Below are positions 2,853 through 40,974 of a DNA stretch of 48,302 bases, one piece after another. A model generated the notes under the pieces. It was not told where the DNA came from, did not search any database, and was given only the letters and a program-made list of their open reading frames with translations. Within the stretch, counting starts at the first letter, position 1. Every line of letters starts with the position of its first letter. A program made the position numbers and the translations under genes. The stretch is from a virus (lineage: Duplodnaviria; Heunggongvirae; Uroviricota; Caudoviricetes), in IMG/VR virus record IMGVR_UViG_3300045988_153358. One strand, written 5' to 3'.

Positions 2853-2928
2853 GGCCCCTTAGCTCAGTGGTTAGAGCAGGCGACTCATAATCGCACGGTC
2901 ATCGGTTCAAATCCGGTAGGGGCCACCA
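2853..2928 (+). tRNA. tRNA with anticodon CAT (Met elongator type, or Ile if lysidine-modified), includes 3-prime CCA
   Basis: cloverleaf folded by hand: 7-bp acceptor stem GGCCCCT/AGGGGCC, D-arm GCTC/GAGC, anticodon loop CTCATAA, T-arm ATCGG/CCGGT with TTCAAAT loop. Confidence 0.85.
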
Positions 2929-5985: not shown

Positions 5986-6609
5986 ATGACAAAACATCTT
6001 AATGTGGTTTCTTTACCACTTTCTGTGTTGATTGGTTATGAAAAGAACGCTCGCACACACTCCGTGGAGCAGGTAGATCAGATTGTTGCCAGCATACAGG
6101 AGTACGGATGGACTAATCCGATCCTGATAGACGAGAACAACGTTGTAATTGCTGGTCATGGTCGAATTGCTGCGGCCACTCAGTTGGGGATGGATGATGT
6201 TCCCTGCATTGTTCTGGCTGGGCTAACGGAGAATCAGAAGAAGGCATATCGTCTGGCCGACAACCGTATTCCGCTGAATGCTGGTTGGGATGAAGAGTTG
6301 TTAAGCGCGGAGCTTGCAGATCTTGCGGCCGATGATTTTGCTCTGGACTCAATTGGTTTTACTCAGCGCGAACTGGATAACTTATTGAGTGCGGCGGTCT
6401 ACGATGACACAGAGGGTATGGATATCCCATTTGAGAAGGATGAGGCCAAATCAGGCGTAAAAGTTCAGTACCTGTCATTTGGAGGTCATAAAATCCCGGC
6501 AACGGATGAGGAAGCGGATCGTTTTGACTGCGCGGTGTCTCGTTATGTTGATGATAATGGCAGCTATATCGGATTTGTATCCGCATTGCTGGCTGGGGAG
6601 GTGTGCTGA
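5986..6609 (+). CDS. ParB-like nuclease domain protein (copy 1)
   Basis: ParB N-terminal domain motifs (IAGHGR, KKAYRLADN); paralog of 9275-9865. Confidence 0.75.
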   Translation: MTKHLNVVSLPLSVLIGYEKNARTHSVEQVDQIVASIQEYGWTNPILIDENNVVIAGHGRIAAATQLGMDDVPCIVLAGLTENQKKAYRLADNRIPLNAGWDEELLSAELADLAADDFALDSIGFTQRELDNLLSAAVYDDTEGMDIPFEKDEAKSGVKVQYLSFGGHKIPATDEEADRFDCAVSRYVDDNGSYIGFVSALLAGEVC

Positions 6610-7982
6610 TGCTTCACCTGAATTACGACATAACGCACCTACGCGGCGCGGAATATAACCCGCGTTTTATCGGTGAGGATGATCTTGCGAGGCTGGCGGA
6701 AAGCGTCAGGGAGCTGGGGCTTGTGAAGCCATTGATAGTGCGCGGCGATTTGCTGGTGGCGGGACACCAAAGGACGAAGGCGCTACGTAAGTTGGGAATA
6801 ACGCGTGCTGCGGTGTATGTGTTGCCCTGTGAAACGACGGTATACGACGAAGTACGGTTTAACCAACTGCATAACGGAACGGATTTTGATAGCGGAGATG
6901 AGCGTTGCAGGGTGTCCGGTCTGGAAGATAAGCATGGTTTTGTTCAGGTATCGGCAAGCCAGATCTCAGGCAATATGCGCGCGAAAATGGCATATGTTCG
7001 AAAGAACATAGCGGAACTGGTTATCAAGTATGGTCCGTGGGGTGGTTGTGTTGCTACTCAGTCTGGTGAGGTTATTCACTGTGCTCAGTATGCATTAGCA
7101 GCGAAAATGACGCGCACACCGCTAACGGTGTTTGTGATCCCTGATGTTGAGAAGGAAAAATACCAAAGTTATCTGAATAAAACTTATGGTGTATTTGAGT
7201 ATTCTCATCTGGAGAAAACAACATACATCCAGACGTATGCGCAGCTTATGCGGTTGCGTAATGGTGGCAGCCTGAAATCAAACCTGTATGAGTCGTTGAT
7301 CCTCCCGATCATTGCCAAGACGCCAAGAGGAATTGATTTTGGTTCGGGGCAGGGAGACTACGCGCGAATGCTCAGGGCAAAGGGATATAACCTGCATGAT
7401 CTCGAGCTTTTCCGCCGTAAGGGCGCTGGAAACACTCTGGATAGGACCGCAACAAACCGGATGATTGATACGCTGGTGGACGACTTAAAAACGCGAGGGC
7501 GTTACGACTACGTGATTTGCGATAGCGTTTTGAACTCGGTCGATAGTGTCGAGGCTGAATGGTCTGTTCTGACGGTTCTGAAAGGCCTGTGTAAAGCTGG
7601 TGGGTCAATATTCTTTTCTGGTCGTAGCCGTGGAGAGCTGGAAACAGTCCTGAAGCAAACACAAGCGGCGAGTTCCAAAAGCCGGCTTTATTTTATTGAT
7701 CATAACGGTTTTACCGCGTTGTACCGGAAGGGGCACTGGTTTTACCAGAAGTTTCACTCTGATGATGAAGTGAAGCAGTTGTGTCGTGTACATGGTTTCA
7801 GGATTAAGCGGTCAATATTCAACTGTAAGAGCTGGTATTTGCACGTCATTAACGATGATTCCCTTAGTTGGGCGAGTCTGGAGAAAGCTGTTCGTTTTGA
7901 GTTTGAGTTGCCGTTGCCTGGTGGTTCAACAATCGGACGATCTGATGATGTGCTGGCGGCTTTCCGGCCGCTGATTAAGTAG
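6609..7982 (+). CDS. ParB-like N-terminal domain fused to a class I SAM-dependent methyltransferase-like domain
   Basis: N-terminal LVAGHQR ParB-like motif; downstream DFGSGQG, DYVICDSVL and LCKAGGSIFFS resemble methyltransferase motifs I-III; no DPPY/NPPY motif. Confidence 0.6.
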   Translation: MLHLNYDITHLRGAEYNPRFIGEDDLARLAESVRELGLVKPLIVRGDLLVAGHQRTKALRKLGITRAAVYVLPCETTVYDEVRFNQLHNGTDFDSGDERCRVSGLEDKHGFVQVSASQISGNMRAKMAYVRKNIAELVIKYGPWGGCVATQSGEVIHCAQYALAAKMTRTPLTVFVIPDVEKEKYQSYLNKTYGVFEYSHLEKTTYIQTYAQLMRLRNGGSLKSNLYESLILPIIAKTPRGIDFGSGQGDYARMLRAKGYNLHDLELFRRKGAGNTLDRTATNRMIDTLVDDLKTRGRYDYVICDSVLNSVDSVEAEWSVLTVLKGLCKAGGSIFFSGRSRGELETVLKQTQAASSKSRLYFIDHNGFTALYRKGHWFYQKFHSDDEVKQLCRVHGFRIKRSIFNCKSWYLHVINDDSLSWASLEKAVRFEFELPLPGGSTIGRSDDVLAAFRPLIK

Positions 7983-37494: not shown

Positions 37495-38694
37495 TTATGG
37501 TCTGCTCTTCTGTGCCAGCTTATCAGCACATGTTTTTATCAGATCCTGTAGTGTCCTGGCTGGCAGGTTTGCATCCAGTACGCTGAGTATGCTGTTGTGA
37601 TCTGCTTGGTCGACTACTTTGCCTGTCGGTGGTAGTAGCTTGAGCTGAGGATTCAGGTTTTCGTCAAAGCTGATAAGTGCTCTGGCGTTTCTGAGCAGAT
37701 CAAGAAGTAAGGCTGATATCACATTTTCCTGAGTCATTGCTGACAGATTTAGCGCCGCTTTGGTTTTCCCTGTTGCCTTGTCAAACTCCTTGATTAGTTC
37801 CTTCCTGTAGTTCGGTTCCGTTAATAGCCGATTATGCTCTGTTGCCGCGCGGATAATCGTTTTTTCCTGGTACAGTCGTTTAGCCAGATCACGCTCGTAC
37901 TGTGTTTTTAACACGCTGCTGATAGCGTTAAAGGCTTCAATGTAGGCCAGCTTGATATCTTTCACGCCTGGACCGTCGATACTTTCCATGAGCAAGGTAA
38001 ATCCGTCTTTTGTCATGCGATAGATTGTTATTTCGCGGTCGCTTCCTTCCAGCGGTCGTTGCTCTTTAAAGAAATGACGTGCCGCAGCTGTGCGAGGAAT
38101 GCGTAACGCATCGATGGCCATAACGATGGAATTGTTTGTGGTGCTGAATGCCTGGGCAACATCGGCTGAGGTTGTGAGTGGCTCGTTGTTGCACACCTTA
38201 ATGTAAAACATCGGTTTGGCGTTGAGCGTATCGACAACCTCACGAGCATTGTTTGGCGAGACGGTTACGGTCGCGGCCGTTTGTGTGTTCTGGCTGAAAT
38301 AGCAGTCTTCCAGCCGTTCGAACACATCCCAAGCCTGATCGGTTTCAAGCATTTTGGCGTGACGTGCAGCCCCGCGTTCTGTCCAGAGAATGAGGGAGCG
38401 GGCTTTCGGGGAAATTTGTAACCCTCTTAAAGATGGTTGCACATTTTGTGAGTTACTTAAAGTAACCCGCAAATTTTGTGAGTGACTTAAAGTCACTCGC
38501 AAAGTTTTTAACTCATCGCCAGCCACTTTGAAAAAATGCTTTCCTTCAATAAAGCGGTTTGCGTTACGTGAGTAATTTTTTTTGATGTTATCAACGTCTG
38601 TGCCGTATAGCTTTGCCAGTAGTTCAGTAGTGATAACGGGGATCTGGTTATGCAGGATAGGCTGTAGGGTGTTAACGGTCGGAAGCGTTTTCAT
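37495..38694 (-). CDS. antirepressor-like protein (ORF6N/KilA-type N-terminus, Rha-like C-terminal part)
   Basis: ITTELLAKLYGTDVDNIKKNYSRNANRF motif; downstream of a small overlapping ORF and structured RNA region. Confidence 0.65.
   Translation of the reverse strand: MKTLPTVNTLQPILHNQIPVITTELLAKLYGTDVDNIKKNYSRNANRFIEGKHFFKVAGDELKTLRVTLSHSQNLRVTLSNSQNVQPSLRGLQISPKARSLILWTERGAARHAKMLETDQAWDVFERLEDCYFSQNTQTAATVTVSPNNAREVVDTLNAKPMFYIKVCNNEPLTTSADVAQAFSTTNNSIVMAIDALRIPRTAAARHFFKEQRPLEGSDREITIYRMTKDGFTLLMESIDGPGVKDIKLAYIEAFNAISSVLKTQYERDLAKRLYQEKTIIRAATEHNRLLTEPNYRKELIKEFDKATGKTKAALNLSAMTQENVISALLLDLLRNARALISFDENLNPQLKLLPPTGKVVDQADHNSILSVLDANLPARTLQDLIKTCADKLAQKSRP
38443..38502. repeat. two tandem 30-bp dyad-symmetric repeats inside the antirepressor gene
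   Basis: ATTTTGTGAGTTACTTAAAGTAACCCGCAA then ATTTTGTGAGTGACTTAAAGTCACTCGCAA; arms GTTAC/GTAAC versus GTGAC/GTCAC. Confidence 0.8.
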
Positions 38695-38882
38695 TTTGCA
38701 CCTCCCATAACTACTTTGGTTACGAGGGAGATTTTTGCGTCAGAAACAGCGTTATCGTTGCTGGCGATGCGCATAGCTTCGCGCTCGATGATTTCAGCCA
38801 GGCGGAATTTATCGGCGTATGAGGCTTTCTTGAGAAGGATCTTTACGAGGTTGACGTAATAGTCATGGGGTAGGTTTGTCAT
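38691..38882 (-). CDS. small ORF (63 aa) overlapping the antirepressor start; icd-like position
   Basis: 4-nt overlap with downstream gene; AGGGA Shine-Dalgarno. Confidence 0.45.
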   Translation of the reverse strand: MTNLPHDYYVNLVKILLKKASYADKFRLAEIIEREAMRIASNDNAVSDAKISLVTKVVMGGAK

Positions 38883-39046
38883 TGTGATGATTCCCTTAAA
38901 GGTTAAGGATACTCACCACCGTCAGGTTCCAATCATTGGGTGGTGAGACGTGCAGGGTTGGAACTACCGGACACAATGACGAACCGGCGAGTCTTACGAC
39001 TCCCCCGCACGCCCCACCATAATTTGGGTGTAGCAGTGCTTTACGC

Positions 39047-39150
39047 ATAAAAAAACCGCTAACGCGGTATGCGCCATTGTGTCTACGGGGTTCCAATCCC
39101 GACCGTAGATTTTGCTACGGCTCGGAAAGTGTCCACCAATGGCGCATTCA
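39047..39150 (-). ncRNA. candidate c4-like antisense sRNA (5-prime end not determined)
   Basis: minus-strand hairpin ACCGC-GUUA-GCGGU plus U7 at 39049-39068; stem CCGUAG/CUACGG; GAUUGGAACC element repeated in the leader at 38925-38936 and complementary to 38954-38964. Confidence 0.35.
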
Positions 39151-39638
39151 TGTCAATACGGCGGGATTTTAACAGAGACAACCACATAGCGTGGGTTTAT
39201 TGGTAGGCAGAAACAAAAAAACCGCCCTATTGAGGACGGTTCTTTCGTGCTGATCGGATTCGCGGTCCTTTCAGCATAACGTCGTTGTATAAACAACCAC
39301 GCAAGCACAAGCAGCAAGTTAATTTTACCCAAAAGGTAATAATAGTCCACTATTATGCTTCAAAAAATTGTGGTTCTTGTTGTGCCTGCAAACTCACAGA
39401 TTGTGGGTAGGTTACTGATTTTGTGAAAATAAACGAGTTTTTTCGTTTAATTTCTTTCCTATTACTAATCTTAAAATAATCGTAAAATACCTGTGGACCT
39501 TCCCGCCGATTCGCACCCGGGCACCGACTTTAGGGGAGGATTCTCCGTTGCCGTACATGCAAGCACAAGCAGCCGTGCTTGCTCTCGCGTTGTTTTCGTC
39601 GGTGGGGATGCCGTGAAACGGCCTGTAAGGGCCATACA

Positions 39639-39761
39639 ATGAAAAAATACTGTATGTGTATTTTTATCGTTGTTACTGGGGCTTTGTTTACGCCACATGG
39701 GGAGGGTTGGAAGATTACTGATAACGCTCTGAATGTGACGATAAACATTAGCAGCAAGTAG
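39639..39761 (+). CDS. possible small hydrophobic peptide (40 aa)
   Basis: AAGGG Shine-Dalgarno 8 nt upstream; translation MKKYCMCIFIVVTGALFTPHGEGWKITDNALNVTINISSK; strong terminator follows. Confidence 0.3.
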   Translation: MKKYCMCIFIVVTGALFTPHGEGWKITDNALNVTINISSK

Positions 39762-39766
39762 CGATT

Positions 39767-39790
39767 AGGCCCCTTCGGGGGCCTTTTTTA
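39767..39790 (+). terminator. Rho-independent terminator with UUCG tetraloop
   Basis: AGGCCCC-TTCG-GGGGCCT followed by TTTTT. Confidence 0.75.
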
Positions 39791-40010
39791 TGGTTGAATT
39801 TAAACGCTGGAGCGCTTAAGCCTTTCAGAACTGCTTCACGTACCCATTCTGGCCTGGTGGATAGCAGGGCAAATAAGCGACCAGCTTGCAGCCGTTTGAG
39901 GTCGGTTAGACGAGTTTTCAGTAACCGTGTATATTGTTGCTCGGACATAACAAATTCCCCTTGTTGTGTCGCGACGGCCAACAGTTGGCGCTGGAGGCCG
40001 TCACCTTCTC

Positions 40011-40302: not shown

Positions 40303-40956
40303 TTACGCGGCAGTAGTCAGAGCCTCAAGCTGGTTGATAATCCCCTGAATAACGTCGTCTGCCTTTTTGCGTGGCGCAACGTATGAGCATTCAATGAGGC
40401 TTAAGCCCTTATCCTGAGCTTTGCTCAGAGCTGGCTTGTGGGGAATGTACTTATCGACAACAAAGTATGGCGTATTAGCCAGGTACTCTTGGGCTTCAAT
40501 GTAGTCGGCTTCGTTTTCAGCCGCGCCTGAGAACACCATGCAAATTTTCTTGATTGGCACACCCTTTTTAACGATGCCGTGAGCTGTGTTAACGGTGGTT
40601 TCTAGGTCATCGGTAGAGAATCTGGTTGGCAAAATAACCATATCCAGAAATTCAGAGAGCTTCGGTACTGATTCAGATGCGTAGGCACCGCCATCGACGA
40701 TAACCAGGTCGTATACTTCTGATTCGATGATTTTCTGGACTTGTGATGGCGTGCCGCACGGCTGCGCCGCGATTGCAGGTTCGATATTGTTGGCCATTCT
40801 GCGTTGTACCCAACGCGTTACCGTTCCGTTAAGCACATCCATATCGATCAGGCATACATTCCAGCCGGCCTTTGCATAAGCAACTGCTAAAGCACGGGCA
40901 ATTGTTGATTTGGTTACGCCGCCTTTTCCGTTGAAAATACCTACAGAGATAGTCAT
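40303..40956 (-). CDS. parA: ParA/MinD-type partition ATPase
   Basis: deviant Walker A GIFNGKGGVTKST; start at second ATG chosen because of GGAG Shine-Dalgarno. Confidence 0.8.
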   Translation of the reverse strand: MTISVGIFNGKGGVTKSTIARALAVAYAKAGWNVCLIDMDVLNGTVTRWVQRRMANNIEPAIAAQPCGTPSQVQKIIESEVYDLVIVDGGAYASESVPKLSEFLDMVILPTRFSTDDLETTVNTAHGIVKKGVPIKKICMVFSGAAENEADYIEAQEYLANTPYFVVDKYIPHKPALSKAQDKGLSLIECSYVAPRKKADDVIQGIINQLEALTTAA

Positions 40957-40974
40957 TTGTCGAGACTCCATGTG

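Follow-up and report, generated by a model that had tools for sequence, protein, structure and literature searches.

What is encoded by the structured stretch that lies between an immI-like region and a partition (par) locus on a phage-plasmid of Escherichia coli? The window analyzed here is the whole 48,302-nucleotide (nt) sequence of the IMG/VR virus record IMGVR_UViG_3300045988_153358 (Caudoviricetes), and the locus in question occupies positions 39215-39789. A first, sequence-only reading had noticed a 40-codon hydrophobic open reading frame (ORF) with a terminator behind it and with repeats and hairpins in front, and had proposed either a type I toxin-antitoxin locus similar to hok/sok or another peptide regulated by a small RNA (sRNA). 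We conclude that the locus is very probably a complete timPR (RyfA/TimP-TimR) type I toxin-antitoxin module, as judged from its sequence. The type I assignment stands, with a full-length ryfA match, a TimP-homologous peptide and a TimR-type RNA gene. This analysis directly observed homology for the peptide and for both RNAs, conservation of the pairings, and joint variation of antitoxin seed and target. The RNA-level features that define timPR are present at the locus, the weak inhibitory pairing discussed below aside, and the curated score of the peptide falls short. The locus is a divergent, previously unannotated copy of a family already known, and not a new kind of system.

The putative toxin mRNA and its peptide

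RyfA is the messenger RNA (mRNA) of TimP, a toxic inner-membrane protein of 38 amino acids (aa), and TimR is an upstream small RNA from the opposite strand that blocks TimP translation through an 18-nt pairing of its 5' end with the timP leader (PMC7667032). The toxicity of TimP, its insertion into the inner membrane and the translation block by TimR have been demonstrated in Salmonella only (PMC7667032). By analogy with this family, the phage-plasmid peptide would be toxic and targeted to the membrane, and the cognate sRNA would repress it.

The whole window was scanned against Rfam at curated thresholds, and four matches were found: a tRNA, a c4 antisense RNA, an isrK-like RNA and ryfA (RF00126). 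The ryfA match scores 141.8 bits against a gathering score of 80 (E = 1.8e-36) and covers model positions 1-296 of 296, while relatives of the locus score 129-166 bits. Folding energies are -114.5 kcal/mol (z = -4.0) for the 297-nt plus-strand RNA and -42.8 kcal/mol (z = -5.4) for a 103-nt minus-strand RNA upstream of it (39316-39214). Both values lie beyond shuffled controls and agree with the structure first noted in this region. The GC-rich UUCG terminator described at the outset was recovered by a terminator scan too.

The 40-codon ORF was found again, together with its Shine-Dalgarno (SD) sequence, both in the sequence and in the ORF list. It starts at +147 of the ryfA match, the same position as the annotated timP of E. 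coli K-12. The peptide consists of a hydrophobic, signal-like N-terminal segment and a polar C-terminal half. The mean Kyte-Doolittle value is 2.36 for residues 4-17 (2.34 in K-12 TimP) and -0.53 for the tail (-0.68 in K-12). Positions 1-40 of 40 match the NCBIfam model toxic_TimP (NF040796) with E = 7e-5, and BLASTP against K-12 TimP gives 36% identity (E = 4e-8). A profile search retrieved TimP-named proteins of Salmonella, Erwinia, Citrobacter and Kalamiella at 45-51% identity, and a 39-aa relative with 68% identity is encoded on a related element. A Pfam search of the 40-aa peptide gave no match. We regard the peptide as a divergent but clear TimP homologue.

The putative antitoxin RNA and its target in the leader

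The timP leader forms four stem-loops (SL1 to SL4), with the TimR site in SL2 and the SD sequestered by SL4. Translation needs a pseudoknot between site 1 in SL1 and site 3 in SL3 as well as a pairing of site 2 with site 4 that opens SL4, and a pairing of site 1 with site 2 is the lock of the inactive form (PMC11228461, PMC13000454). Eight aligned homologues were scored for the pairs of SL1-SL4, of the terminator and of the pseudoknot, with slid partners and shuffles as controls; the covariation tests of this study rest on 8-14 sequences. A total of 96.5% of the cells are paired in the imposed leader structure, compared with 40-53% in the slid controls, and seven pairs are altered on both sides, a number equaled by none of 500 shuffles. 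The site 1-3 pseudoknot (7 base pairs (bp), -16.4 kcal/mol) is paired in 100% of cells, two of its pairs being compensated relative to K-12, and the SL2 helix is 98% paired. The SL4 stem GGCCU/GGGCC, which covers G137-G139 of the SD, is 100% paired with one compensated pair. The 5-bp site 2-4 pairing GCCGU/ACGGC is also 100% paired, compared with 25-53% for slid partners; it holds no double changes, and so conservation is the whole of its support.

Since Rfam has no TimR family, homology of the antitoxin was tested with a purpose-built covariance model, derived solely from K-12 TimR and two IncF-plasmid TimR homologues and run over the whole window. It gave a single strong, full-length match at 39314-39216 on the minus strand, with 60.7 bits (E ~1e-13), and the next match reached 20 bits. 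The 100-nt RNA aligns with annotated K-12 TimR, with the core CUGCUG.AAGG.CCGCGAA.C.GA..AGCA and the terminator in common, and the consensus fold of seven TimR homologues contains six compensated pairs in the hairpin. A sub-threshold Rfam match of the minus-strand RNA to RNAI (26 bits, compared with a threshold of 47) was treated as chance.

A duplex search was performed for the longest pairing between the mRNA and 1300 nt of the upstream minus strand. The best duplex has 18 contiguous bp, one of them G-U, and joins 39298-39315 (minus strand) to +64..+81 of the mRNA; none of 100 shuffles reached it. The same search on K-12 paired the annotated timR 5' end with +64..+83. When the seed was compared with other sites of the window, SL2 of timP was its best non-self duplex (-35.9 kcal/mol), and bulged seed duplexes elsewhere in the window (-31 to -35 kcal/mol) are indistinguishable from noise.

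These results give a meaning to the repeated element that the sequence-only reading had reported without interpreting it. The repeat GCAAGCACAAGCAGC is indeed present, in exactly two copies at 39301-39315 and 39559-39573, although the second had been placed one position too far, at 39560. The upstream copy is the predicted antitoxin seed and the downstream copy its predicted target. With up to two mismatches allowed, the window contains three copies of this 15-mer against 0.17 expected, and none of 100 shuffles reached three. The third copy, GCAAACACAAGCGGC, has two mismatches and lies at 7655-7669 (+) within a 459-aa ORF (6603-7982); it does not rank among the top duplexes predicted for the TimR-like seed and is probably due to chance.

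The promoter-like site of the TimR-like gene ends 7 nt before the seed, which places the predicted start near 39315. Its TGGAC(T/A) and -10 blocks are kept in eight diverged relatives, and the adjoining DNA beyond is hypervariable. A -10-like TAAAAT was read at 39483-39488, upstream of the toxin mRNA start. The antitoxin would be the product of a separate, divergent gene about 180 nt upstream with about 18 nt of complementarity, and would be trans-encoded, not cis-antisense.

Seed and target vary together among the relatives. The mRNA target is CAUGCAAGCACAAGCAGC in the window (type A), ACCACGCAGGCACAAACAGCG in the ATCC 25922 plasmid and Yersinia phages (type B), CACGCAAGCACAAGCGGUGUG in JE86 plasmid p3 (type C), and AUGCAAGCACUAACCUG in a more distant element, L017, from a Logan assembly (type D). 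The 5' end of the sRNA is altered in step with the target in all four types, in plasmid pGDT4, in a Serratia plasmid and in K-12. The complementarity ranges from 17 to 28 bp and is positioned at +63 to +65. Within SL2 the TimR site lies at +64..+81 in the window, at +64..+83 in K-12, and at +63 to +65 in six other variants. In a 5x5 matrix of duplexes, each RNA pairs most stably with its own partner. From these energies, cross-reaction is predicted among types A, B and C but not for type D and K-12, whose non-cognate pairings reach -17 to -25 compared with -32 to -42 kcal/mol. Predicted pairings between the window and K-12 partners reach -22 to -25 compared with -36 to -39 kcal/mol, with longest runs of 6-10 compared with 18-20 bp. 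Given these weak duplexes, the plasmid module is probably insulated from the chromosomal timPR of the host.

The proposed mechanism follows the family. The plus strand would give a 297-nt mRNA with a 146-nt leader of four stem-loops, the last of which would hide the SD of the TimP-like inner-membrane toxin ORF. By homology with Salmonella, translation would take place only with the site 1-3 pseudoknot (39522-39528 with 39598-39604) and the site 2-4 pairing (39550-39554 with 39618-39622) formed, the latter opening the SD hairpin. The TimR-like sRNA of about 100 nt would be transcribed divergently, from about 39315 to 39216, and its first 18 nt would bind the 5' arm and loop of SL2 (39556-39573), by which the active fold would be destabilized and translation blocked.

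Three points weigh against this identification. Both transcription starts are predicted from sequence alone, and the mRNA promoter has a poor -35 element. At 23 bits, the peptide fails the curated toxic_TimP cut-off of 45, which is why RefSeq leaves the timP-like ORF unannotated. The inhibitory site 1-2 pairing is just 4 bp (GGCA/UGCC), at -6.5 to -9.0 compared with -12.9 kcal/mol in K-12.

Distribution, neighborhood and known relatives

The carrier is a myovirus-type phage-plasmid of E. coli of about 48 kb with repA and parA. Membership of the pSLy3/SSU5 group was ruled out on a literature check. The region is 100% identical to a plasmid of E. coli AR_0067. Relatives were found on 60 plasmids of PLSDB, and 72 (~1.3%) of 5426 complete E. 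coli genomes have them, where 76 of the 77 places are on plasmids; they were also found in the Yersinia phages vB_YpM_39, 41 and 44 and in seven IMG/VR contigs. A contig scan with a strict 22-base IUPAC pattern from SL1 returned two E. coli chromosomes and one chance match in a metagenome-assembled genome of a Planctomycete.

The module adjoins parA in all relatives, including the rearranged L017. Its placement between an immI-like region and the par locus was confirmed, with the c4 and isrK-like RNAs on one side and the ParA gene on the other. The spacer between the divergent units, which holds both promoters, is hypervariable through substitutions and indels, whereas the flanking TimR body and timP ORF are 97-100% identical (L003-L006). 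The pattern suggests that the surroundings of the recognition elements undergo cassette-like exchange or diversifying change. Type-B relatives (~85% identical) have an XRE/helix-turn-helix gene (~190 aa) inserted just beyond the TimR terminator, on the side of the isrK-like RNA (907-1479 in L004, the ATCC 25922 plasmid; also in L001, L024 and other type-B elements), and the window lacks this insert. Similarity to type-B relatives stops just after the TimR terminator, and therefore the module is delimited to 39215-39789. Two ORFs in 39250-39500 (41 aa, plus strand; 65 aa, minus strand) were rejected as genes, as the stretch is invariant at every codon position or rich in indels among relatives.

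Next to the module, the isrK-like RNA, c4, the 63-aa ORF and the antirepressor-like ORF follow one another in a P1/P7-type immI arrangement (38936-39121 region). The TimR-like RNA is co-directional with this immI-type operon, and its own terminator lies about 95 nt before the isrK-like RNA. On the other side, the relatives L006 (1240-1629) and L007 (1240-1638) have an extra ~175 bp compared with window positions 39790-40010. It sits between the timP terminator and an 82-aa gene upstream of parA, and in L006 it is annotated with a 49-aa hypothetical protein. In record L009 (NZ_CP032259.1; 20788-21434 and 23930-25899), this plasmid family also encodes a RelE/ParE type II toxin-antitoxin pair, and an IS21 copy splits the antirepressor gene, which is intact in the window. 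The tRNA gene of the window lies at 2853-2925 (+) and scores 67 bits. The matching RefSeq plasmid has one annotated tRNA, tRNA-Ile, which may be the same gene.

Features of the putative timPR module and its neighborhood in the window
Feature	Position	Strand	Source
399-aa antirepressor-like (ORF6N/Rha-type) ORF	37495-38694	-	ORF list
63-aa ORF	38691-38882	-	ORF list
c4 antisense RNA, 77.8 bits	39024-38936	-	Rfam
isrK-like RNA, 67.7 bits	39121-39049	-	Rfam
Intrinsic terminator of TimR-like RNA, CCGUCC-UCAAUA-GGGCGG then U7	39215-39247	-	Fold; invariant in relatives
TimR-like antitoxin sRNA, ~100 nt (single-stranded 5' seed, two hairpins, terminator)	39216-39315	-	Covariance model, alignment, fold
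TimR-like seed, 5'-GCUGCUUGUGCUUGCGUG, holds the upstream 15-mer copy	39298-39315	-	Duplex search
Promoter-like site: -35 TGGACT (39349-39344), 16-nt spacer, -10 TAAAAT (39327-39322)	39322-39349	-	Promoter scan
Spacer between divergent units	39316-39492		Alignment of 8 relatives
timP-like (ryfA) toxin mRNA, 297 nt	39493-39789	+	Rfam RF00126
SL1 (+7..+46)	39499-39538	+	Pair counts, 8 homologues
Site 1, CACCGAC, in upper SL1	39522-39528	+	Pairs with site 3
Site 2, GCCGU (+58..+62), partner of site 4	39550-39554	+	Pair counts; role from PMC13000454
TimR target (+64..+81), holds the downstream 15-mer copy	39556-39573	+	Duplex search
SL2 hairpin	39559-39582	+	Pair counts
SL3 (+93..+124)	39585-39616	+	Pair counts
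Site 3, GUCGGUG, SL3 loop, pseudoknot partner of site 1	39598-39604	+	Pair counts
Site 4, ACGGC	39618-39622	+	Folds, pair counts
SL4, sequesters SD AAGGG (39627-39631)	39620-39633	+	Folds, pair counts
SD AAGGG, 7 nt before ATG	39627-39631	+	Read in sequence
timP-like ORF, 40 aa, MKKYCMCIFIVVTGALFTPHGEGWKITDNALNVTINISSK, ATG at 39639, TAG end (+147..+269)	39639-39761	+	ORF list
Intrinsic terminator of toxin mRNA, AGGCCCC-TTCG-GGGGCCT (7-bp GC-rich stem, UUCG loop, U6)	39767-39789	+	Sequence, terminator scan, pair counts
ParA gene	40303-40971

The closest known system is the chromosomal timPR of Salmonella enterica and E. coli K-12 (b4440/b4812/b4811; timR was formerly STnc2070/RyfB). Both loci have a divergent sRNA upstream of a toxin mRNA that is about 300 nt long and has its ORF start at +147, and share the four-stem-loop leader with the SL4-sequestered SD, the site 1-3 pseudoknot and the site 2-4 pairing. 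The TimR 5' end pairs with SL2 at +64..+81/83, and the TimR body contains the hairpin CUGCUG..AAGGnCCGCnAAnC..CAGCA in addition to the terminator. The peptides have in common the N-terminus MK..C.CI..IV.GAL and a polar tail. The two differ in location, as the chromosomal copy sits between sseA and sseB and the other between immunity and par regions of a phage-plasmid. The peptide is 36% identical and under the NCBIfam cut-off, seed and target sequences differ, the promoters are ~180 nt apart instead of ~400 nt, and the site 1-2 pairing is weaker.

Mobile copies of the same family were found on the IncFII conjugative plasmids pGDT4 of Yersinia pseudotuberculosis (timP WP_243758296.1) and pJSRIV006_1 of Serratia sp., with ryfA matches of 235 and 214 bits, respectively. 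As in the layout of the window, each has a cognate upstream TimR-like sRNA, with 20-28 bp of complementarity at +63. Their peptides are 47-50% identical to the window peptide, with the C-terminal motif G-GW-I-.N...V.IN in common. Unlike in the window, these copies lie on conjugative plasmids beside transfer genes, the peptides have 39 aa, and no more than ~60-70 nt separate the sRNA gene from the mRNA start. Besides its TimR homologue, pGDT4 has another sRNA-like element upstream (L022, NC_011759.1, 2144-2168, minus strand), which is followed by a terminator of its own. Its 5' 25 nt are complementary, with two G-U pairs, to timP +135..+159, the region of the SD hairpin and start codon. This element may serve as an additional antitoxin that targets the ribosome-binding site directly, and no counterpart was seen in the window. 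Plasmid-borne timP is already present in annotation, as pGDT4 shows, and our literature search found no paper linking ryfA or timPR with phage-plasmids.

Three E. coli type I systems, tisB/istR-1, zorO/orzO and shoB/ohsC, also have a divergent, trans-encoded antitoxin with ~18-20 nt of complementarity to the toxin leader. Their sequences and RNA families are unrelated, and none of them is above the Rfam threshold in the window. The mRNAs of the tisB, zorO and shoB type need nucleolytic processing, whereas timP uses a structural switch (PMC11228461).

Biological role and alternative readings

We infer the biological role of the module from context only. Post-segregational killing, in which cells that lose the element are killed or disabled, is the role that we tentatively favor, because the module lies on a low-copy plasmid-prophage and adjoins parA in every relative, and because the Salmonella timP mRNA outlives TimR, being the more stable of the two RNAs (PMC7667032). 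Two observations count against a maintenance role: deletion of timR in Salmonella at native expression did not slow growth (PMC7667032), and the element already carries the RelE/ParE type II module. A wider proposal, which we hold to be possible but rather doubtful, is that the phage-plasmid timPR is a true addiction or exclusion module with diversifying co-evolution of RNA-RNA recognition, in which types A-D would insulate it from chromosomal TimR and, for distant types, from the modules of competing elements.

The same module could instead serve phage defense or superinfection exclusion. An invader would stop host transcription, the short-lived TimR would decay, TimP would be made, and the cell would die before the cycle of the invader is completed. 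Links between type I toxins and abortive infection have been described, as in the example of hok/sok against T4 that is cited in PMC13000454. The stability of the Salmonella timP mRNA relative to TimR would fit such a sequence of events, as would the position of the module next to the immunity region (c4/isrK/ant). However, the constant neighbor is also the partition operon, the related IncF copies are near transfer genes, and general plasmid maintenance fits at least equally well. As a role argued from context and analogy, exclusion is in our view rather unlikely.

A further alternative is that the 297-nt RNA is mainly a non-coding regulator of host stress or virulence genes and that its ORF is incidental. 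This would correspond to the RyfA of the literature on uropathogenic and avian pathogenic E. coli and on Shigella, and most of the RNA is indeed leader structure. In that literature RyfA is treated as an sRNA affecting stress resistance, biofilm and virulence (PMC8205139, PMC10664665, PMC13188913). However, the ORF is intact in all homologues examined, with the same start position and hydropathy profile down to 36% identity, and conservation extends to the hairpin that sequesters the SD and to both translation-controlling pairings. Moreover, a dedicated anti-translation sRNA is co-inherited, and toxicity in Salmonella depends on the start codon (PMC7667032). We consider a mainly non-coding function very unlikely.

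A hok/sok-type locus, with an overlapping cis-antisense RNA from an internal promoter, a Hok-family peptide and a coupled upstream frame, was first suggested by the small hydrophobic ORF, structured leader and strong terminator beside a par locus on a plasmid, but membership of that family is refuted, to the point of being hardly credible, by a 40-aa TimP-like peptide without a Pfam match to Hok or any other family, by the absence of hok, sok or any other type I Rfam family at gathering threshold in the window and of hok/sok matches even at E up to 1 within 39130-39900, by the lack of an overlapping mok-type frame, by a promoter scan that gave no minus-strand promoter-like site inside 39493-39789, and by the separate complementary RNA encoded upstream. 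The likeness to hok/sok of plasmid R1 is one of setting, as both are plasmid-borne type I systems beside partition functions with post-segregational killing as a plausible role. The cis-overlapping antisense RNA, mok coupling, 3' processing and different toxin family of the R1 system have no equivalent here.

Read as a timPR copy, the locus has consequences for annotation and for the family. The peptide is under the NCBIfam cut-off and RefSeq misses the locus in this plasmid family, and therefore the threshold of the model could be revisited. One member of the family missed in this way is the 48.5-kb plasmid of E. coli ATCC 25922, a reference strain in wide use. The natural variants, in which seed and target differ in concert, offer specificity mutants already at hand for the published pseudoknot and structural-switch model. 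A phage-plasmid copy of timPR beside a partition operon is a natural setting for testing post-segregational killing and phage exclusion. If it were an addiction or exclusion module with specificity types, carriage of one type would give no protection against another and would not cure it, and this would be the first clear biological role for the timPR family.

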